In this document: piece after piece, positions 2,399 to 17,334 of the stretch
How positions within the stretch are numbered: position 1 is the first letter of the stretch
Layout: each line of letters starts with the position of its first letter
NCBI GenBank assembly: GCA_027006785.1
Contig: JALTFR010000032.1
Span: forward strand, 544 to 64,543
DNA length: 64,000 nt
Direction: 5' to 3'
From: Thermoplasmata archaeon
GTDB lineage: Archaea > Thermoplasmatota > Thermoplasmata > WALJ01
Translations under genes and position numbers: made by a program
Notes under the pieces: generated by a model
What the model was told of the DNA's origin: nothing
The model's database searches: none
What the model saw: the letters and a program-made list of their open reading frames with translations, nothing else

Positions 2399-2752
2399 GT
2401 GAAAAGCAGCATGTATGAGGGCCTCTTCAGAGCCCTCAAGAAAGAGAAGGTACGAGCCTGCGTGATATCGTCAAGGCGAGGCACACCGATAGCGTGGTAT
2501 GGAATAGAAAGGAAGAAGATAGATACAATATCAACCCTCTCGGCTGCCATGTACGGGGCCTCTCTCGTCCTCCACAGGGAAAGTGAACTCCCATCGCCAG
2601 ACATTGTCATGTCGGATTCGGATGACAAGGTCTTCATGATAAAGGGAATGAAGAACGGCAATATACTGGCGGTTATAGGCGAGGGAGATCAGAAGAAGAT
2701 TATGAAGGATATGAACAGAGTTATAGATGAATTCGGAGGTGCAGGTCTATGA
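2399..2752 (+). CDS. Roadblock/LC7 (MglB-like) domain protein
   Basis: 117 aa with ACVISSRRGTPIA...STLSAAMYGAS...MSDSDDKVFMI...NILAVIG, the typical roadblock pattern; GTG start. Confidence 0.75.
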   Translation: MKSSMYEGLFRALKKEKVRACVISSRRGTPIAWYGIERKKIDTISTLSAAMYGASLVLHRESELPSPDIVMSDSDDKVFMIKGMKNGNILAVIGEGDQKKIMKDMNRVIDEFGGAGL

Positions 2753-4278
2753 AAGAGGTCAATATACCGGGTGAAATAAGAAGGTTTTTCGAACTGAAAG
2801 GCAGCAGGTCGCTCCTGATAAAAGGGCCGGCAGGCACAGGTAAAACCACCTTGGCTCTTCAGATAATGGAGGATCTTGGCAACCCCAGTTCCAGCTTTTA
2901 TCTCACGACAAGAGTCTCTGACGAGTCCCTTTTCCAGCAGTTTCCATGGCTGAGGGATGAGGAAAGGAGGAGAAAGGTGGTGGATGCAGGAAAAGTGCTT
3001 CTCGAGGCACTCTACGGGAAGAAAAAAGAGCCTGAACTGCCGCCCGAGGCAAGTGAGACTATAGGTGTTGCAAAGAAATTCCTGAAGAACATAACCGAGA
3101 CCGATATACCCGAAAAAGTAGACAGGACCTATCTTAACAGAGTTTTCTCGAAATATGGCAGAATTCCTGAGATTGAATACACCTATGACCGCATAGATAC
3201 CATGCTTCCCGAGAGAACAATGGTGGTCATAGACAGTGTGGAGGGAATCACACACAAATACTCTGTTGACCCCGAGGATTTCATCATGATGCTTCAGAAG
3301 GACCTTGTGGAGTCTTCCAACACCAATGTGGTCTTCGTCCTTGAGAAGAATGAAGCGCCCGAACTGGAATATCTCGTTGATGGTGTGGTAAATCTCCATG
3401 CCGAATCGGAGAACTCGAAGAGAATACGCGAGATAAGCCTTGAAAAGCTGAGGTCGATAAAGATAGAACAGCCGAAGTACGTATTCACACTCAACAGAGG
3501 GAAGTTCAGGAGCTTTGACATATCTGACAGTACTTCTGATAAGAAAAGCAGGGAATGGAAGCCGTGCACTGAAAAAGAAGGGATGTACAGCACGGGAATA
3601 TCAGACCTTGACAGGATTCTCGGGGGCGGATATCGCAAAGGAAGCTATAATGCGCTGGAACTGGACCCAAATGTTTCTCTTGAGGATTTCTATCTCATCG
3701 TCCGACCGATATGGATGAACTTTGTACTTCAGAAGAGAGGCATTGTGGCAGTACCCGTAGGTGGTGACACATCGGAGCACATAATACAAGACGCCATGCA
3801 CTTTCTGGGAAAGGAGAAGGCGCACTCCCTTGCTGAGAACTATATAAGAATAGTAGATTATTTTTCGGAAGAGTCCGAGAGTCCATTTGTCATGCCCATG
3901 GCAGGAAAGGACACAGATGAGATAATACGTCTCTATACCGAGAATCTGCAGCACATAAGGGGCCCTGAGAACCGGCCGATAATGGACTATGTCGGTTTCG
4001 ACACCATAGAGTATCTGAGAGGAGACAACATCGCTATAAAGGACCTGCTTTCAACAGTATCCAGAACCAAGAGGTCAGATGACATAGGCCTCTGTGTCGT
4101 ACGTCCGGGCCTGAAACTTACCCAGGAGATAATGAACCTTTCAGATACCTACATAAGGCTATTTGTAAAGGACAGGGTACTCTTTATCTACGGCATAAAG
4201 CCAAAGACGGGCATGTATGTCGTTATAGTGGATGAAGAGCGCGGTCTTCCACACATACGTCTGGAACCCATGGTCTAA
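2749..4278 (+). CDS. GvpD-like double-domain RecA/KaiC-superfamily ATPase
   Basis: N-terminal Walker A GPAGTGKTT and Walker B VVIDS; second domain STGISDLDRILGGG has a degenerate P-loop; ATGA overlap with roadblock gene. Confidence 0.85.
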   Translation: MKEVNIPGEIRRFFELKGSRSLLIKGPAGTGKTTLALQIMEDLGNPSSSFYLTTRVSDESLFQQFPWLRDEERRRKVVDAGKVLLEALYGKKKEPELPPEASETIGVAKKFLKNITETDIPEKVDRTYLNRVFSKYGRIPEIEYTYDRIDTMLPERTMVVIDSVEGITHKYSVDPEDFIMMLQKDLVESSNTNVVFVLEKNEAPELEYLVDGVVNLHAESENSKRIREISLEKLRSIKIEQPKYVFTLNRGKFRSFDISDSTSDKKSREWKPCTEKEGMYSTGISDLDRILGGGYRKGSYNALELDPNVSLEDFYLIVRPIWMNFVLQKRGIVAVPVGGDTSEHIIQDAMHFLGKEKAHSLAENYIRIVDYFSEESESPFVMPMAGKDTDEIIRLYTENLQHIRGPENRPIMDYVGFDTIEYLRGDNIAIKDLLSTVSRTKRSDDIGLCVVRPGLKLTQEIMNLSDTYIRLFVKDRVLFIYGIKPKTGMYVVIVDEERGLPHIRLEPMV

Positions 4279-4305: not shown

Positions 4306-4848
4306 TTATTTTTTCTTTTTTAGGTTCTTCAGTTCTTCCACCATTTTTTCCCGGATATAAGGTGGAAGTATCACATAATTCGGCTGTTTGCTCAGGTCCA
4401 GAGGAGGATTCATGAAATCATCCTTTGATTTGAAGCCTGCTTTTCTGAAGAAAGAGGAACCTTCGCGGGTAAGAGGTTTTGTTATCATGTATCCGTTCAC
4501 TTCTTTCAATGCCAGAAGCAGGAGCATCCGGCCTATGCCTTTTTTTCTCAGCTCGGGATGGACTTCAATGGCTCTGAGTACATATACCGGCATCCCATTA
4601 TATGCGCTCTCTGTCCATTCCTCCACATACACCCACCCTAACACAAGCGTCTCCTTCATAGCCACTATAAGCACCGGTCTGGGAAACCTTCGGAGCCACA
4701 TCTTGAATGCCAGATCATAGCCGACTATGCCGAGGCCGTGGAAGAAATCAAAACCGCCCTCTTCCTCGGGAATCTCGAGTTTATCCACCTCTCGTGCATT
4801 TTCAATCTTGTAATAAGATATGTTTCCGCTTTTCAGAAGTTCCTTCAA
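4306..4848 (-). CDS. GNAT family N-acetyltransferase
   Basis: IEVHPELRKKGIGRMLL acetyl-CoA motif; FFRKAGF. Confidence 0.85.
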   Translation of the reverse strand: MKELLKSGNISYYKIENAREVDKLEIPEEEGGFDFFHGLGIVGYDLAFKMWLRRFPRPVLIVAMKETLVLGWVYVEEWTESAYNGMPVYVLRAIEVHPELRKKGIGRMLLLLALKEVNGYMITKPLTREGSSFFRKAGFKSKDDFMNPPLDLSKQPNYVILPPYIREKMVEELKNLKKKK

Positions 4849-4879: not shown

Positions 4880-5488
4880 TTATTCGGTGTACACTATCCA
4901 GACGCTGGCGTTGTTCCTCATTATCATGTTCAGCATAGTCTGACTTATGCCCGCTTTTTCCAGAAGTATAGGGAGCCACTCGTCCGGAGCTATTTTTTTG
5001 GTTCCGTCAGGGGCTACGGTTGCAATATGTGCAACTCTCAGTTGCTTTCCCTCAACCTTTATCCTTTTAGCCATCTCTGCCCTGTATGTCTGGATGATGA
5101 TGTCCTGACTGTCTATGGCACCGGGTTTTACCGTTGAGTTATAGTATTCTGCGACCTCGTAGTGTATGCTTGCAAAGTTCCCTATCCTTTTGGTGTACTC
5201 CTGCCACCCTCTCAGGAAAGGAGATTCGACAGTCACAACACAGTGTTTTGTGGGCATTTCAACCTCTTCAAAGGTGGAGAGAGCAGAATCTCCGTTCTTC
5301 AGCGCATCGACAAAGTCTTCCCAGCTTTCGTACTCCTCTTCCGGCATGCTCCTTGCCAGTGCTGCCGCCAGGCTCATCAAGTATGTGTTCATTCCTGCGG
5401 CACCCTGTTTGTCCGCTATGTCCTCAAGGAAGAGGTAGGCTGCAACATCAACCAGCGGGTTGTCCTTCACAAGGTCCTTCTTTCTCAT
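4880..5488 (-). CDS. V4R/methanogen-output-domain-like protein, Cys-depleted paralogue
   Basis: Aligns along its length with 5485-6114 (DVA..D..K.G..G..Y....LAR.M..E.Y..W..F..AL..G). Confidence 0.65.
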   Translation of the reverse strand: MRKKDLVKDNPLVDVAAYLFLEDIADKQGAAGMNTYLMSLAAALARSMPEEEYESWEDFVDALKNGDSALSTFEEVEMPTKHCVVTVESPFLRGWQEYTKRIGNFASIHYEVAEYYNSTVKPGAIDSQDIIIQTYRAEMAKRIKVEGKQLRVAHIATVAPDGTKKIAPDEWLPILLEKAGISQTMLNMIMRNNASVWIVYTE

Positions 5489-6114
5489 TCTTCTTCCTCC
5501 TCACCTTTGAGCCTTGCTCCGTGCATGATTATCGCATAAACGCAGGCATAGTTCCTGAGCAGGCTTCTGACATATTCCTCATTCACTCCTATCTTCTTCA
5601 GGTTCGGCTTGTCTATCTTCGTTTCTCCGGTGAAGCCTCTGTCAGCCAGCTGATAGGATTCCAGCTGCTGGCCGGCTACTGTTATATTTTTTGCCACCTC
5701 GTCCCTGAACTTCTGGTGTATCACGCAGAAGTTGCAGACAGCCGTGTCCCTTATGCTGTTGTTGTACTCCTCAGCCACAAGGCGGTCGGCCTCGGGAACC
5801 TCTCCGACGCTGTACCTTATCCTCGTTATCGTCGGGTTGAACACACACTCGCGGAGCGCGTATATGTAGCCGACCACATCTCCGTCCACATCCGTTATCG
5901 CAAGGTCCGTAAGGGCGGTCACATCCCCCTCTATGGAGAATGCGGTCCTCCCTTCCCTGAGAGCCACATTGAAGGAGGGCCATCCCATGTAGGCTTCCTT
6001 GCCCATCCTTCTGGCCAGGTTCTCGCCGACCCTCAGCCAGTACTGTATCGTTCCTTCTACTCCTGCCTTCTCGCTCATGTCCTGGATGAGCGATACAAGC
6101 GCCACATCAAGCAT
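5485..6114 (-). CDS. V4R/methanogen-output-domain-like protein, Cys-rich paralogue
   Basis: VGENLARRMG, RECVF, VCNFCVIH, YACVY; Cys spacing resembles V4R-clan small-ligand/metal-binding domains. Confidence 0.65.
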   Translation of the reverse strand: MLDVALVSLIQDMSEKAGVEGTIQYWLRVGENLARRMGKEAYMGWPSFNVALREGRTAFSIEGDVTALTDLAITDVDGDVVGYIYALRECVFNPTITRIRYSVGEVPEADRLVAEEYNNSIRDTAVCNFCVIHQKFRDEVAKNITVAGQQLESYQLADRGFTGETKIDKPNLKKIGVNEEYVRSLLRNYACVYAIIMHGARLKGEEEEE

Positions 6115-7753
6115 CTTTTTCGCCTCCTTTTTCTTCTTTCTTCACATATATCGTATACCTTCCTCTGGTCGTTTTGTCCAGTCGTCCTTCTTCGACAAGC
6201 ATATTCACAATATTCTCCACATCTTCACCTTTCATGCTTTTAGCCAGGGCCTTTTTCAGTCTGTTGATGGTGCATCCGCGCTCCGGTATTGCATCCAGTA
6301 TTCTGGCACTCATCTCTTCCGCCATTTCAGAGGATTCGACATCTTTCTCCGCTATGTCTCCTGCTTTAACGGGTTTTTCTCCGGTATCTATCTTAGTGAC
6401 AGGGAAAAACCTGCGGGTCCTGCCCTTTTTATCCTCTATGATAAGACCTTTCTTAATAAGCGAAGAAAGTATGTCATCGAGAGGAGAGGATATGAATGAA
6501 AGAACCAGTTTTTTCAGTTTAGTATAACTGATTCCATCCGAAGGCACCGCCGAAGAAACAAAACGCTCCTCTTCGCTCAAAGATTGAGAATCTTCAGTTT
6601 CACGAGTTCCTGTTTTCCCCTTTACTGCTTTACCACTTTTTCCCGATTCCACACCGTCCAATCTTTTTGAGATGGCCTCTATGGTGATAGCGTTCTCTTT
6701 AAGGGACTCTTGCACTGAGTTCAAGGAGACGGAATACTCCTCGCGCAGGCTGTTCAAAGCTCTCTCAAGAGAATCCAGTCTGGAATCCCTTCTGGAAAGT
6801 TCGTCCATCAGTATTTTTTCTGTCTCTTCTTTCAACCTATTTTCCAGCTGAGCTATTCTTTCTGCCTGTGATGAGAGGCCAGAGACGGTGGAGGACAGCA
6901 TAGTATCTATTCTGGATATCCTTTCTTCCATCATCTCCATGCGCTCCAGAAGACTTGTTGTTTTGTCCACGGTGTATTCCTGACTCTTCAGTTTTATCAT
7001 GGCCTTGAAGTTCTTTGGCTTGTATGAAGGTACATGCTCGCTGAGTGCTTTTATAAGCGCCTCGTAGGTGTCCTGAAGCTGTTTTGCCGATATCATACCT
7101 CTCTTTATGTTCTTTGCAACGTCTCTGGTGCGTATGAATCTTCCATCGTAATAGAACATCTCGCTTCCGCTGGTCTCAAGTCTTATTCTCTCGAGAGTGT
7201 CAATTATGATGTTCTCCGCTCCCGGTCCGAATTCCTTCCACAGGTTCATGCTCAGGTCCTTAAGAGTTGTGTCATAGACGATTTCAAGTATGTTCGGAGG
7301 TATCTTTGTGACATCTATTATCTCGCCGAAGCCGGTCTCTTCCATGACAGAGAGTAGTTTTTTGTTCATCTTCAGCATATCTTTTTTCAGGAGTTTCATT
7401 CTGGTATTGTCAACTTTGCTTTCAAGTTCCTTCATGAGCTCATCATTCTTCCCCACCACAAAGTCGGTGAACTCCTTTATCTTCGTCATCAGCCTTTCGT
7501 CTTCCTCCTTGAGATGTGCTATTTCAGACTCTAAAACATCCATTCTCTCAAGAACATCTCTCTTCCAGTTCTCAAGGTCGGCCAGATCCGAGCTTTTTGC
7601 TCTTTTTTCCACCTCTTTCTTAAGTTCTTCCAGTTCCTTCAGAAAATCAGGTCCTTCTCCCTTTTCAAGGCCTTCCGGCGCATATTCCTCGCTGTTTTCA
7701 GGGCTTTTTTCCTCGATCACAGGTCCTTTTTCTATCTCAATTTCTTCCGTCAT
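6107..7753 (-). CDS. Coiled-coil protein with two C-terminal winged-helix-like domains
   Basis: Start placed at ATG 7753 (MTEEIEIEK). Two long heptad segments; C-terminal repeats ...LSSLIKKGLIIEDKKGRTRRFF and ...VNMLVEEGRLDKTTRGRYTIY. Confidence 0.75.
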   Translation of the reverse strand: MTEEIEIEKGPVIEEKSPENSEEYAPEGLEKGEGPDFLKELEELKKEVEKRAKSSDLADLENWKRDVLERMDVLESEIAHLKEEDERLMTKIKEFTDFVVGKNDELMKELESKVDNTRMKLLKKDMLKMNKKLLSVMEETGFGEIIDVTKIPPNILEIVYDTTLKDLSMNLWKEFGPGAENIIIDTLERIRLETSGSEMFYYDGRFIRTRDVAKNIKRGMISAKQLQDTYEALIKALSEHVPSYKPKNFKAMIKLKSQEYTVDKTTSLLERMEMMEERISRIDTMLSSTVSGLSSQAERIAQLENRLKEETEKILMDELSRRDSRLDSLERALNSLREEYSVSLNSVQESLKENAITIEAISKRLDGVESGKSGKAVKGKTGTRETEDSQSLSEEERFVSSAVPSDGISYTKLKKLVLSFISSPLDDILSSLIKKGLIIEDKKGRTRRFFPVTKIDTGEKPVKAGDIAEKDVESSEMAEEMSARILDAIPERGCTINRLKKALAKSMKGEDVENIVNMLVEEGRLDKTTRGRYTIYVKKEEKGGEKDA

Positions 7754-7757
7754 TCGA

Positions 7758-8567
7758 TCACATAAAGCTCCTGAGTTTCTTATCCAGTTCGGGCATCCAT
7801 GCCCGGTAGCATTCATCTGCCATTATCTCTCCACTCATGGCCTTAACATGCTTCTGGATGGCTTTTTCAAGGAACATCCTCCATAACTGGTCGGTCATGT
7901 AAGGGGCAGATGTCCCTATTTCATTGAAGGTAAGGGTTATTATTTCATCAACAGCACCGACACCCACAACGTCTTTCAGCTTATCCTTTATGAATTGAAG
8001 TATCTCCATGTTCTTTTTGTATTGTTTTGTCTGTTCAAAGCGCTCCACGAACAAAAGCCTGCTCAGTTTTCTCAGTTCGTCAGCCACATCTTTCGGATAT
8101 TTGTTCAGTATGTCCTCGTTTATGGGTTTCAGTTCCAGTATGTGTTTCATCACAGTGCTACCTTTCATGGACGTGCTGACAATATTCTGAAAATCCGCCG
8201 GCACTATTGGCCTTGAGAACTCAAGCGTCATGAATGCATTGTCACCCACACCTGCTATGACAACAGTCCCTTCTTTGTACTGTTCTATGGCTATTCTGAG
8301 GTTTTCTCTTCTTAACTGTCCGCATATGTGCTGCATATTGGCTTTCAGAAGGTTCAGCATGTAGAATTGTTTGGCATTAAGGTCTCTGGGTATAACGGAT
8401 GAGAATGTCCTTCCATCCACCCCCATGAGGAATATCATGTCGCAGCCTGCCTCGTCCTTCAGGCGCTTCAGTTCCATGCTCAGAAGGTGTTTAAGGAGTG
8501 CGACATTCTCGGCTTCGAGTCTTCGGTCCAGTGTTTTCCTCAGATTGGGTTCCATGCTATCACTCAT
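7758..8567 (-). CDS. Roadblock/longin-like N-terminal domain plus helical C-terminal domain
   Basis: CDMIFLMGVDGRTFSS...IAIEQYKEGTVVIAGVGDNAFMTL roadblock-like pattern; stop/start overlap with the KaiC gene. Confidence 0.6.
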   Translation of the reverse strand: MSDSMEPNLRKTLDRRLEAENVALLKHLLSMELKRLKDEAGCDMIFLMGVDGRTFSSVIPRDLNAKQFYMLNLLKANMQHICGQLRRENLRIAIEQYKEGTVVIAGVGDNAFMTLEFSRPIVPADFQNIVSTSMKGSTVMKHILELKPINEDILNKYPKDVADELRKLSRLLFVERFEQTKQYKKNMEILQFIKDKLKDVVGVGAVDEIITLTFNEIGTSAPYMTDQLWRMFLEKAIQKHVKAMSGEIMADECYRAWMPELDKKLRSFM

Positions 8568-9439
8568 TTGAAGTTATAGGAATCAAAGATAATCTGGATG
8601 GCTTCCTCCGGCGAATACGGGTATGTCCAGCCTTCCTTCATCTTCTTCAGTTTCTCAAGGACATAATCGGGGGCCTTCATGTGCTCGGCGGTCCTTATGG
8701 CCTCGTCGAATATCTCATCGTAGTTCTTCTTTTCATCCTTTTCAATCTCGACAGGGCTGCTTCTCACGATAACACCGGCGCCTCTCGAGAACATGTACGG
8801 ATAAACGTCCTCTCCATGGGCCGTCCCTCTCATCTTAACTATCTTCAGGGTCCTGTTAAAGGCACCACCTATAGGATAATACTCGAGGTGGATGACGCCA
8901 TCCGACAGGTATATCGGGAGCAGGACATCCTCTCCTATGGTCTCGCCGGGCCTTGCGTGCTCCTCAACCGTGGCAACCACAACCCCAAGTTCCTTCAGGG
9001 TGTAGAAGAGCTTTCCGATGAGTTCCCTCTGTATCAGTTTGTCCTCCGTGGCCCATATGACCGGCGTCATCGGGTCTATGACAACCCTGGTCTTTATGTC
9101 GTAGTCGCTCCGAACTTTCACAAGCTGGGGCAGTTGTTCCTCTATCATCTTCTTGAAGTTCTTTCCTTTCAGGTGTATGAAGAACAGGTCCTTCTCATAG
9201 TGCTTCTCCATGTCCCAGCCCATCATCTTTGCCTCTTTCATTATCTGTTCAGGGCTCTCTTCCATCGTTATGTACAGGCCCTGTTCCCCTATGTTTATCC
9301 CGTGCATGAGGAACTGCATTGCGAATGTTGTCTTTCCCGTACCGCTTGAACCTACGATAACGATGGCGCTCTTGTCTATTATCCCTCCTTCGATGAGGGA
9401 GTCGAGTCCGTATATTCCAGTTTTTATTCTTTCTACCAT
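8564..9439 (-). CDS. Single-domain KaiC/RAD55-family ATPase
   Basis: IKTGIYGLDSLIEGG, Walker A GSSGTGKT, YITMEESP, RVVIDP, SDGVIHL, KIVKMRG. Confidence 0.92.
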   Translation of the reverse strand: MVERIKTGIYGLDSLIEGGIIDKSAIVIVGSSGTGKTTFAMQFLMHGINIGEQGLYITMEESPEQIMKEAKMMGWDMEKHYEKDLFFIHLKGKNFKKMIEEQLPQLVKVRSDYDIKTRVVIDPMTPVIWATEDKLIQRELIGKLFYTLKELGVVVATVEEHARPGETIGEDVLLPIYLSDGVIHLEYYPIGGAFNRTLKIVKMRGTAHGEDVYPYMFSRGAGVIVRSSPVEIEKDEKKNYDEIFDEAIRTAEHMKAPDYVLEKLKKMKEGWTYPYSPEEAIQIIFDSYNFK

Positions 9440-9441
9440 TT

Positions 9442-10335
9442 TTATTCCTCCTTTCCTTCCTTCATCTGTTTTGCCAGAAGCTCGGCAAAGCTCCTGCTCT
9501 TTTTACTTTCCTCAACAAGGTTGACTATTTTCTCCTCTTCTTCGGGGGTAAGTACTTTCTTTTCCTGATTAAATTGCTCGCTCATGGCCTCCGCAAAGCT
9601 TCTTGCAGCGGCTATGGCAGAGGATATCTCTCTCATCATGGTCCACGGAGGGTCAAAATCGTCCTCATCTTTTATGGGAGTGTTGAGCCTGTACTTGTAA
9701 TAAGTATTGCCAATCTCCGTAGCCTTCATGTCCTCGTCCAGTATTCCGTATCTCTGGAGTACATCCATTCTGTAAGCGACCTCATCCTCATTCATGTGCA
9801 GTCTGGCAGATATCTCAAGGATGTCCATCCCGGCATCGTCTATCTTCAGTCCGATAATCTTCCGGTCATATTCGTCCAGAGCTATCTGGTATGCCTGAAG
9901 AGGATTGGCTTTTACAAGGAACTCGCACTGTTCATACCCTTCACTGACACATCTTATCTCCTCGGAATTCGCAGATATTCCGAGGTCGTCCGAGAAGAAA
10001 CTGGAAAACATATCTGCAGTTATGTAGCATGTCTTCTTTCCCTTGGCATCGGGAATAAGCCCGGGAACAGGAGAATCTTTAACGCTGAAGAGATACGAAA
10101 AGTCGCCGACCTTTTCTATGTCAAGCTCACCAAGGTCAGTCTCTCTGAATATGAATTGCATGAATTGAAATAGAGGCGTGTTTCTGACCTGTTCCTCGTC
10201 ACTCGCAGTAAGCATCTTTTTTGTCTCTTTCGGCGGGACTCTGGACATCTTTATGACGGTGTTTATACCCGTTTCCAGCTTTGTCATATGGTCAAGGGCT
10301 GCCATCCTGTGTGCAAAACTGCGATAAGGGCTCAT
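9442..10335 (-). CDS. V4R domain plus winged-helix protein
   Basis: TCYITADMFSSFF...SEEIRCVSEGYEQCEFLV is the V4R C...E..C...G...C.F signature; followed by HTH LHMNEDEVAYRMDVLQRYGILD...TEIG. Confidence 0.8.
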   Translation of the reverse strand: MSPYRSFAHRMAALDHMTKLETGINTVIKMSRVPPKETKKMLTASDEEQVRNTPLFQFMQFIFRETDLGELDIEKVGDFSYLFSVKDSPVPGLIPDAKGKKTCYITADMFSSFFSDDLGISANSEEIRCVSEGYEQCEFLVKANPLQAYQIALDEYDRKIIGLKIDDAGMDILEISARLHMNEDEVAYRMDVLQRYGILDEDMKATEIGNTYYKYRLNTPIKDEDDFDPPWTMMREISSAIAAARSFAEAMSEQFNQEKKVLTPEEEEKIVNLVEESKKSRSFAELLAKQMKEGKEE

Positions 10336-10868
10336 TCTCTCTGCACCTCCTCCATTGCAGCATCCTCGAGCAGTTCTATCTCCTCGGGTGAAAGAAGGCT
10401 TTTCCCTTTTTCGGTCACGTCTTTTCCATGTATGAGTCCATTCTCCTCGGCTTTTTTAAGTCCATCCCGTATTTCATCCTCATCAACCTTCAGTACGGAC
10501 GCCATGATTTTTTCGTCTTTAATACCGAGCAGCATCAGTTTGACTATGCTCTCTGCAAGTTCCTCTCCTCCACCCTCGCCCTCGATCAGAGGAAGAAGCA
10601 GATGTCTCAGAGCAAGGAGCCTCTCGGCGTTTTTCCCTTTTATTGTAAGGCTCATGCTTTCGACTTCAAAACTCAGCGTTCCTTCTCTGTTCTCTATATT
10701 CTGAAGGTCCTTTATGGGTATCTCGTACCATATGTCTCCATCTGTGAGCATAAGGTTGTTCAATGTAAGATAGAGCGCTCCGTCTTTCCATACAAATCCC
10801 ATGTCGACATTGCTGTCAACTATGCGGAATGTGACATTGCCTACCTTCTGCATCTTACTGCTCATCAT
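10332..10868 (-). CDS. CheF-like protein (one PH-like domain plus C-terminal winged helix)
   Basis: Start placed at ATG 10868, about 22 nt below a TATA-like element. WKDGALYLTLNNLML...EIPIKDLQNIE and ...LLGI...DEDEIRDGLKKAEENGLI...VTEKGK resemble the CheF N- and C-terminal patterns. Confidence 0.55.
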   Translation of the reverse strand: MMSSKMQKVGNVTFRIVDSNVDMGFVWKDGALYLTLNNLMLTDGDIWYEIPIKDLQNIENREGTLSFEVESMSLTIKGKNAERLLALRHLLLPLIEGEGGGEELAESIVKLMLLGIKDEKIMASVLKVDEDEIRDGLKKAEENGLIHGKDVTEKGKSLLSPEEIELLEDAAMEEVQRE

Positions 10869-10885
10869 GCTTGTATGGGAGTTTA

Positions 10886-10900
10886 CCTTTAAATATTTTT
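10886..10900 (-). promoter_or_regulatory. TATA-like element of the KaiC-type operon
   Basis: Minus strand AAAAATATTTAAAGG about 22 nt upstream of ATG 10868, within an AT-rich divergent spacer. Confidence 0.45.
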
Positions 10901-11051
10901 CGTAGAGATGGGCATTTATATAACTATGGTTTAGTTTTTGAATAATGATAACAGTAATGAAAAAAAGATATATGGTATTTTTTAGGAATATCTTTTCGGA
11001 AGCGCCAATCACAATCTTTATATCTCAAATTTGGATGGGCAATGGATAGCG

Positions 11052-17230: not shown

Positions 17231-17334
17231 TGCCGAGGACGGGGTTTGAACCCGTGACCTTCGGATTTCCCGGGAACGAGCGTCCGCATCAGTCCCTATG
17301 AGTCCGACGCTCCACCAGGCTGAGCCACCTCGGC
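17231..17334 (-). tRNA. tRNA-Met(CAT), elongator type, 30-nt intron at 37/38 (17267-17296); CCA not encoded
   Basis: GCCGAGG acceptor, GCTC/GAGC D arm, TCGGA-CTCATA-[intron]-A-TCCGA anticodon arm, ACGGG-TTCAAAC-CCCGT T arm. Confidence 0.93.

Follow-up and report, generated by a model that had tools for sequence, protein, structure and literature searches.

A lineage-specific loss of Cys/His residues in one of two tandem paralogues from a class-wide Thermoplasmata operon

BcsD (AxCeSD), TRAPPC3, PoxR and H-NOX have been described as structural relatives of Thor-TRAPPC3, in which a Zn2+ ion is held by four Cys residues, as in PoxR; the positions of the Zn ligands vary between members, always joining the beta-sheet to helix D, and mouse TRAPPC3 has a Ser-Asn hydrogen bond in place of the Zn site (PMC10933270). 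Cys residues of the V4R domain modulate the redox-dependent DNA binding of MsvR, and the CX2CX3H motif of MthMsvR resembles RsrA (PMC3729527). Similarity has also been reported between V4R, MetOD1 and ATC hydrolase (an ATC-hydrolase-like C-S hydrolase; PMC5847659). The Zn site of MopR (C155, C181, C189) has been described as structural. Here we analyze two adjacent genes, encoding proteins that we call A and B, in a 64,000-nucleotide stretch of DNA from a Thermoplasmata archaeon (contig JALTFR010000032.1; hereafter, the window). The two proteins are best placed in the TRAPPC3/V4R fold group, as a branch distinct both in sequence and in the arrangement of its ligands; a duplicate pair of this branch has become fixed in a KaiC operon present across the class.

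The two genes lie in tandem on the minus strand:

5485 to 6114, minus strand: open reading frame of protein B, 209 amino acids, the Cys-retaining paralogue
4880 to 5488, minus strand: open reading frame of protein A, 202 amino acids, the paralogue without the Cys/His site in the window's lineage

The stop codon of B (TGA) overlaps the start codon of A (ATG) in the sequence ATGA, and a Shine-Dalgarno-like GGTGAGGAGG run lies upstream of the A start. The ATG of B in turn overlaps the stop of the upstream 569-amino acid gene (g5) and is preceded by AAGGAGG. These overlaps of starts and stops imply that g5, B and A are translationally coupled. Wherever both occur, A and B are adjacent and co-oriented, which fits a complex between their products.

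A and B are paralogues over their whole length, with a similarity far beyond chance. BLASTP aligned residues 12-199 of A with residues 1-195 of B (56/201 identities, 28%; E 1e-20), and comparison of the A-family and B-family profiles with hhalign gave a probability of 100% (E 1.2e-63). End-to-end alignment had been proposed in a sequence-only reading of the window, and the three motif correspondences quoted there (ECVF, AVCNFCVIH and RNYACVY of B with ESPF, AIDSQDIII and RNNASVW of A) are paired identically in the BLASTP alignment. Going from B to A, the aligned residues are C90 to S89, C127 to D126, C130 to D129, H133 to I132 and C191 to S195, so that, as that reading had stated, the Cys residues become Ser or Asp and the His is lost. 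Window B has four Cys in total, every one of them at these aligned motif positions (C90, C127, C130 and C191), and window A has a single Cys, C83.

The conserved elements of B are as follows:

5845 to 5847, minus strand: B Cys90 (ECVF, pairing with 'CPF' of the superfamily), in 121/121 homologues and at least 90% of the superfamily; proposed metal ligand
5716 to 5736, minus strand: B C127-N-F-C130-V-I-H133, a loop and the N-terminus of helix 129-142
5542 to 5544, minus strand: B Cys191 (YACVY, pairing with 'CxY' of the superfamily), in 121/121 homologues and at least 90% of the superfamily; start of the last beta-strand
5866 to 5895, minus strand: B acidic beta-hairpin TDVDGDVVGY, residues 74-83, B-specific and an insertion relative to other members

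Among homologues of B (P0001-P0120; 76-95% identity to window B), C90, C130, H133 and C191 occur without exception (121/121) and C127 with two (119/121). We repeated the survey at the species level on 80 loci, one genome per species, from a GTDB-based collection, in which A and B were paired from the same contig (78 pairs). The five B residues are invariant in 79 species-level genomes, including the 78 same-contig A/B pairs; taken together, the B orthologues surveyed number about 200. Across these Thermoplasmata loci B is 71-99% identical to window B, with a mean pairwise identity of 0.80, compared to 61-98% identity for the KaiC-like ATPase and 55-87% for topoisomerase VI-B in the same loci. 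B is therefore among the most conserved proteins of the whole archaeal class. Residues D75, D77, G78 and D79 of the acidic hairpin were also found in 121/121 homologues; in the superfamily alignment neither A nor any distant homologue has the hairpin, which could serve to bind a cation or a partner.

A superfamily profile search of 1.84 billion cluster representatives returned 114 clusters. Distant members are about 190-210 amino acids long and share the pattern CPF ... [S/N]PFCxxHQxxR ... L[G/A]C[K/R]S ... CxY. In the superfamily alignment C90, C130, R137 and C191 (numbered as in B) are conserved at 90% or more, and position 133 is mostly His and sometimes Cys. C130 and H133 are thus superfamily-wide, whereas C127 is specific to B; the fifth Cys of distant members lies instead in the 'GCKS' strand. 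A further Cys, C157, is present in the A proteins of two loci (L082 and L083), both of which lack C195. Interchange of His and Cys together with an auxiliary ligand that has moved (C127 versus GCKS, or C157 in these A proteins) is typical of metal sites.

The corresponding elements of A are:

5222 to 5224, minus strand: A Ser89, Cys in 57/78 genomes
5093 to 5113, minus strand: A D126-S-Q-D129-I-I-I132, which replaces the Cys/His motif
4904 to 4906, minus strand: A Ser195, Cys or Asp where the site is kept and Ala, Ser or Gly where it is lost
5240 to 5242, minus strand: A Cys83, A-specific, in 118/121 homologues and in 16/16 site-less genomes

Homologues of A (P0121-P0240) are 59-93% identical to window A, and 88/121 have both C89 and C129, nearly all of these with His or Cys at 132 and Cys or Asp at 195. 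At the species level, 57 of the 78 genomes encode an A protein with C89, C129 and H/C132. All three residues are gone in 16 genomes, five of them from the window's clade (four loci and the window itself) and 11 from the DHVE2/Aciduliprofundum clade. A sixth member of the window's clade (L004), which falls outside the count of 78 pairs, shows the same pattern as the rest of that clade. The remaining five genomes are intermediate, with N/C/H at positions 89/129/132 in L013 and L029 and S/H/H in L038, L041 and L062. Site-less A proteins have S/D/I at these positions in the window's clade and S or N, D, and I or L in DHVE2. Position 195 follows the rest of the site, with Cys in 37 and Asp in 18 of the proteins that keep it, and the all-or-none loss of the four positions is good evidence that they make up one functional site. 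At the position of B's C127, A never has Cys but D, N, E, T or S.

The ancestral state of this segment in A is [D/N]-x-x-C-x-x-[H/C], and window A still has the Q133 and R136 that belong to the HQxxR motif. The distribution indicates that both subunits carried a Cys/His site ancestrally. Site-less A proteins share F135Y, Q154H and A157T, have a mean identity to one another of 0.78 and retain Q133 and R136, which argues that they are not decaying. Over all genomes A is less conserved than B, with a mean pairwise identity of 0.65 versus 0.80.

These results alter the picture drawn in the sequence-only reading, which proposed a heterodimer of a metal- or redox-sensing subunit and a ligand-blind partner, or two sensors with different chemistry. 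The Cys/His set of B is real and strongly selected, and its Cys residues do not vary, but the split between a Cys and a non-Cys paralogue is not conserved across homologues, given the 57 genomes in which A keeps its site. The substitutions in A are largely specific, if not to one genome, then to two clades, the window's own and DHVE2. Judged from the alignments, a ligand-blind partner describes some lineages only, and the constant difference between the paralogues is that A lacks the first Cys of B's CxxC and has its own C83. The division into a sensor and a blind partner is a local degeneration and not the design of the family.

When the site columns were masked, the intermediates L013 and L029 came out closest to the window's clade among the A proteins. 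A single origin of site-less A, uniting the window's clade with DHVE2, was not supported: it received 0-21% neighbor-joining bootstrap from five operon genes in a crude analysis with the site columns masked. Loss of the A site therefore probably proceeded in steps, and it may have occurred on more than one occasion. We also rejected covariation between B position 153 (Cys, Ala or Ser) and the state of the A site over 30 contig-matched pairs, since L005-L008 combine C153 with a site-less A.

Complete loss of the A site is seen in hydrothermal-vent lineages (L004-L008, L017-L019, L027, L035, L039 and L045-L050), and the partial S/H/H state occurs in L038, L041 and L062, whose isolate names as metagenome-assembled genomes (MAGs) suggest soil or sediment. 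An environmental correlate of the A site state is possible.

Sequence searches with A and B against Pfam, NCBIfam, PDB sequences and PADLOC returned nothing meaningful. The sequence-only reading had called the proteins V4R-like, but the Pfam V4R model (PF02830) matched neither A nor B at E<=0.1, and 47 members of the superfamily gave no match to it even at E<=10. In hhalign, the profiles of A, B and the superfamily were compared with the family of the operon's own V4R protein, which carries a helix-turn-helix (HTH) domain (g2), and the probabilities were 0.3-0.7%. Similarly, the TRAPP/Bet3 models of Pfam did not match A, B or the 47 superfamily members, and searching PDB sequences with the superfamily profile produced noise only, with no TRAPP chain at E<=10. 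Pfam searches of the 47 members at E<=10 yielded one Fer4_11 match (E 0.049, 1/47 members), which is noise, and one weak match to MetOD1 (E 0.042).

What stands of the V4R assignment is the broad fold group, to which structure comparison points weakly. AlphaFold2 monomer models, built on a 92-sequence alignment, had a predicted local distance difference test score (pLDDT) of 89.4 and a predicted template-modeling score (pTM) of 0.86 for B, and 94.0 and 0.89 for A. Both models show a long N-terminal helix, three more long helices and a four-stranded sheet, and the order of these elements is compatible with a Bet3-type fold. Foldseek searches of PDB with the two models found nothing strong (best E 4.5e-3; template-modeling (TM) scores 0.35-0.59). 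Nevertheless, both models independently retrieved BcsD/CesD, TRAPPC3/Bet3 and MopR/PoxR/DmpR, and the B model also retrieved YslB. BcsD/CesD was the top match of both (probability up to 0.98, target-normalized TM 0.48-0.59, about 9-11% identity), followed by chains of 6aq3, the TRAPPC3 of N. fowleri (probability 0.69-0.80, TM 0.33-0.41), and by 2j3t and 2j3r (Bet3/Trs33; probability 0.33-0.44 for B and weaker for A); matches to MopR/PoxR/DmpR were weak (probability 0.28-0.66, TM 0.30-0.39, E 0.04-1). The models thus weakly place A and B in the TRAPPC3(Bet3)/V4R/BcsD/H-NOX fold group.

In the AlphaFold2 model of B, C90 lies just after strand 80-87, C130 and H133 fall at the N-terminal end of helix 129-142, with C127 in the loop before it, and strand 191-197 opens with C191. 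As modeled, the candidate ligands would occupy a sheet-to-helix location analogous to that of the Zn sites of Thor-TRAPPC3 and PoxR.

Set beside TRAPPC3/Bet3, the A and B models tentatively share a two-layer fold of about four long helices and a four-stranded sheet, with the long N-terminal helix first, and the candidate Cys-based metal site would sit at the sheet/helix junction and is replaced by polar residues in some members, as in mouse TRAPPC3. Like TRAPPC3 and TRAPPC6, which form a heterodimer, A and B are a paralogous pair, and their relatives occur in small-GTPase and Roadblock neighborhoods. Unlike TRAPPC3, they show no sequence or profile similarity to that family (TM about 0.3-0.43), their ligands are Cys3His plus an extra Cys at other sequence positions, the NTPase of their operon is a KaiC-like ATPase and not a Rab, and nothing points to acylation or a role at membranes.

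With the V4R proteins (MopR/PoxR/DmpR and MsvR), A and B share the broad fold group, on weak Foldseek matches, a conserved Cys cluster and the use of small stand-alone or fused modules. The V4R cluster is a structural Zn site in MopR and PoxR and serves redox sensing in MsvR. Its triad C-x25-C-x7-C (C155/C181/C189 in MopR, C206/C232/C240 in MaMsvR) is absent from A and B, which are of the type C-x39-C-x2-H-x57-C. BcsD/CesD is the best Foldseek match of both models, but the A/B hosts are archaeal and their loci lack cellulose-synthesis genes, no bcs gene being present in the loci inspected. We know of no Cys/His site in BcsD. Common membership of the fold group described in PMC10933270 is the most likely source of this similarity.

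The A/B family is tied to P-loop switches by gene fusions and by gene neighborhoods. One member is fused to a KaiC ATPase (P0309) and another to an Arf-like GTPase (P0336). On a Hodarchaeota contig (L086:798-4722) a family gene follows genes for a Ras/Arf GTPase, Roadblock, a MetOD1-like protein and a second Roadblock; on a Lokiarchaeota contig (L088:5082-6043) it is directly downstream of a Roadblock gene, and on a bacterial contig (L089:5161-6624) directly downstream of a PatA_N-Roadblock gene. In Thermoplasmata, A and B belong to a cluster of eight genes in the order g1, g2 (V4R and HTH), g3 (KaiC-like), g4, g5 (coiled-coil), B, A and g8 (GNAT), which is collinear in essentially every long-enough contig among the 80 loci; in nearly all loci that reach that far, the KaiC-like g3 lies three genes upstream of B (g3, g4, g5). 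In this the operon resembles the archaeal KaiC-like ATPase signaling modules cited in PMC5847659, being centered on a single-domain KaiC-like ATPase and HTH proteins, with the P0309 fusion as a further likeness.

Our preferred reading, to which we give a probability of about 0.55, is that A and B make up a module of the TRAPPC3/V4R fold, probably a heterodimer, which serves the KaiC-like ATPase and a Roadblock-like switch as an adaptor or as a sensor of a small ligand. Its Cys3His residues would most likely hold a structural Zn, and this site was replaced in the A protein of some lineages. The tetrad of the family (a Cys after strand 2, Cys-x2-His/Cys at the N-terminus of the fourth long helix and a Cys that opens the last strand, as a rule with a fifth Cys) would bind a single metal ion, most probably structural Zn2+, and the ion would link sheet and helix in the manner of Thor-TRAPPC3, PoxR and MopR. 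B keeps this tetrad and its extra Cys, as CxxCxxH, in every genome, and the ancestral tetrad of A was C89, C129, H132 and C/D195. In A of the window's lineage and of DHVE2 the four candidate ligands were swapped together for Ser/Asp/Ile/Ser, along with the correlated changes F135Y, Q154H and A157T. A nevertheless stayed under purifying selection and kept its Q..R motif, the metal site having probably turned into a polar or packed site like that of mouse TRAPPC3. Made from coupled genes, the two proteins would most likely assemble into a heterodimeric module attached to a P-loop NTPase switch. TRAPPC3/Bet3 proteins dimerise through their N-terminal helices; indirect support for a dimer here comes from the constant adjacency and coupling of the genes and from N-terminal helices that are highly conserved yet differ between the two paralogues.

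Several observations weigh against this reading. The Foldseek matches are weak, and neither sequence nor profile comparison links the family to V4R or TRAPP. The conservation of B exceeds what a simple structural-Zn adaptor obviously needs. Five conserved Cys/His residues that include a CxxC fit an iron-sulfur (Fe-S) cluster or a redox switch equally well, and the hosts are mostly anaerobes. Finally, one locus has no A gene: in the Thermoplasmatota MAG CSMAG_268 (L056:3803-5077), g5 and B are followed by a 72-nucleotide gap and the GNAT gene, and B retains all of its Cys/His residues. The absence of A may be either a natural deletion or an assembly artefact; as the locus stands, an obligate heterodimer is not universal.

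A more far-reaching version, which we regard as doubtful, is that A and B, the possibly Roadblock-like g4 and the KaiC-like ATPase make up a TRAPP/Ragulator-like NTPase-regulating complex, in which a Bet3-like heterodimer is joined by a Roadblock subunit. Such a complex would be universal in Thermoplasmata and evolutionarily linked to the Roadblock/small-GTPase operons of Asgard archaea, with the B site as a redox or metal input and more than a structural staple. If this were true, regulatory input at the Cys/His site would account for the near-ribosomal conservation of B.

Among rival explanations of the site itself, the one that survives best, although we think it unlikely, is that B, and ancestrally A, binds a [2Fe-2S] or [4Fe-4S] cluster through three to four Cys and a His, acting as an oxygen, redox or iron sensor that feeds the KaiC-like ATPase and the HTH regulators; site-less lineages would then sense through B alone. 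B has four invariant Cys and a His, including CxxCxxH, and A has Asp or Cys at the fourth position. Ligation by three Cys and a His, or by three Cys and an Asp, is known in Fe-S sensors. Most hosts are archaea that are anaerobic or live at vents, and the operon encodes an MsvR-like V4R-HTH protein, MsvR being a redox-responsive regulator. However, the solved Cys-cluster members of the fold class cited here (Thor-TRAPPC3, PoxR and MopR) bind Zn, and an interchange of His and Cys or a freely swapped auxiliary Cys is seen more typically at Zn sites. A has lost the whole site in some lineages yet stayed conserved, which a structural site would allow more readily than a cofactor used in sensing, and no Fe-S family was matched beyond the lone Fer4_11 noise.

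Somewhat less probable again is a thiol or zinc-thiolate redox switch, in which a disulfide in B, between C127 and C130 or elsewhere, would free the metal and alter the conformation, leaving A of the window's lineage redox-inert, which comes near to what the sequence-only reading had in mind. The extra Cys that is invariant and specific to B makes a CxxC beside the His, and A never has the first Cys of this CxxC. A mechanism of this kind has been proposed for MsvR and is attributed to zinc-containing anti-sigma factors. The V4R Cys residues that modulate DNA binding by MsvR, and the RsrA-like motif of MthMsvR, offer a parallel, but A and B have no sequence relation to the operon's V4R/MsvR-like domain detectable by hhalign. 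Distant members, moreover, lack the CxxC and have another fifth Cys, so that a CxxC switch cannot be the general mechanism of the family.

The idea that the pair consists by design of a sensing subunit and a ligand-blind scaffold, so that division of labor would be the conserved function of the duplication, now seems very unlikely and is largely refuted by the orthologue survey. It describes the window and the other site-less genomes (16/78), in which A is without every ligand and B has them all, and it could draw on the lack of C127 in A and on A's lower conservation. In most genomes, however, A keeps Cys, Cys and His/Cys, mostly with Cys or Asp at the fourth position, and the loss maps to particular clades, with intermediates nearest the window's clade and no support for a single deep origin in the five-gene analysis.

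That A and B are enzymes using Cys, His and Arg catalytically is highly improbable: the invariant Cys, His, Gln and Arg of HQxxR could make an active site, and the likeness of V4R to ATC hydrolase and the weak MetOD1 match of one superfamily member (E 0.042) would suit it, but A of several lineages drops all Cys/His while keeping Q and R and not decaying, the neighbors are NTPases, Roadblock, HTH and coiled-coil proteins with no metabolic gene among them, and to our knowledge none of BcsD, TRAPPC3/Bet3 and the phenol-binding MopR/PoxR domains is an enzyme.

The family has no Pfam or NCBIfam entry and no solved relative by sequence. A literature search found nothing describing it in Thermoplasmata, although the KaiC survey of Makarova, Galperin and Koonin (2017) was outside the reach of that search; Podar (2008) has nothing on the Cys residues. 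If the heterodimeric adaptor reading is right about the fold, the family would be a third, sequence-distinct branch of the TRAPPC3/V4R type, tied to P-loop NTPase switches, and as such would bear on the origin of eukaryotic GTPase-regulator complexes. The natural series of A proteins with a full site, a partial site, no site or no gene at all is a ready-made test of a structural against a regulatory role for the metal site. More interesting than the loss in A, which was flagged at the outset, are the extreme conservation of B, the eight-gene operon itself and the way in which family members repeatedly turn up beside Roadblock and NTPase genes, in Asgard archaea as well.

The other genes of the cluster, and a neighboring pair on the opposite strand, are:

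10332 to 11012, minus strand: g1, small protein with a weak winged-helix match; first gene of the conserved cluster
9442 to 10335, minus strand: g2, V4R domain with an AsnC-type HTH (PF02830, E 3.5e-7, 30.7 bits, just below the 31-bit cut-off)
8564 to 9439, minus strand: g3, single-domain KaiC-like RecA-type ATPase (PF06745, E 1.6e-49)
7758 to 8567, minus strand: g4, 269 amino acids (orthologues about 265), N-terminal part tentatively Roadblock/LC7-like
6107 to 7816, minus strand: g5, 569-amino acid coiled-coil protein with weak C-terminal winged-helix matches; its stop overlaps the B start
4306 to 4848, minus strand: g8, GNAT N-acetyltransferase (PF13508, PF00583); last gene of the conserved cluster
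2399 to 4278, plus strand: Roadblock/LC7-like gene (2399-2752) and GvpD/KaiC-like ATPase gene (2749-4278, 509 amino acids), both by Pfam

The V4R part of g2 is matched by the MsvR model, and its Cys spacing is C-x25-C-x7-C, as in MopR and MsvR. NCBIfam models of the KaiC family matched g3 at the domain level, all under their curated cut-offs. Residues ~33-124 of g4 aligned to a small Roadblock/LC7 alignment by hhalign with a probability of 91% (E 1.1e-6), and the Pfam Robl_LC7 model matched none of ten g4 orthologues searched individually; we consider g4 tentatively Roadblock-like on this profile comparison. The length of g5 varies from 569 amino acids in the window to 755 in L056 and 943 in Proteinoplasmatales SG8-5 (L001:7168-9999), with the central part alone conserved (27-60% identity). 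The open reading frame of g1 spans 226 amino acids from a GTG codon, compared to about 167-207 in orthologues (172 in SG8-5); given these shorter orthologues, the true start of g1 is probably downstream of the GTG. On the plus strand, the Roadblock/LC7-like gene, a weak Pfam match under the curated cut-off, overlaps the start of the GvpD/KaiC-like gene, and this pair adjoins the GNAT end of the cluster only in the window's clade (L004-L008).

Hosts of the cluster are found across Thermoplasmata, including DHVE2, Methanomassiliicoccales, Proteinoplasmatales SG8-5, Saliniplasma and many MAGs; the nearest relative of the window is an uncultured Thermoplasmata MAG. The sequencing runs that carry the locus are DNA only and come from hydrothermal-vent metagenomes. 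PADLOC gave no meaningful defense-system match for the eight operon proteins, and instead of a patchy distribution the operon has a near-universal one in Thermoplasmata, with its gene order preserved.

One contig labeled as a Leptolyngbyaceae cyanobacterium MAG (L057, JAIMBL010000099.1) carries the archaeal genes for B (82% identity), A (64%) and GNAT (49%), which is likely to be binning contamination. Elsewhere in the window, at 17231-17334 on the minus strand, the Rfam tRNA model matched with 58 bits over 104 nucleotides and ARAGORN found no tRNA in the whole window; this is probably an intron-containing archaeal tRNA.

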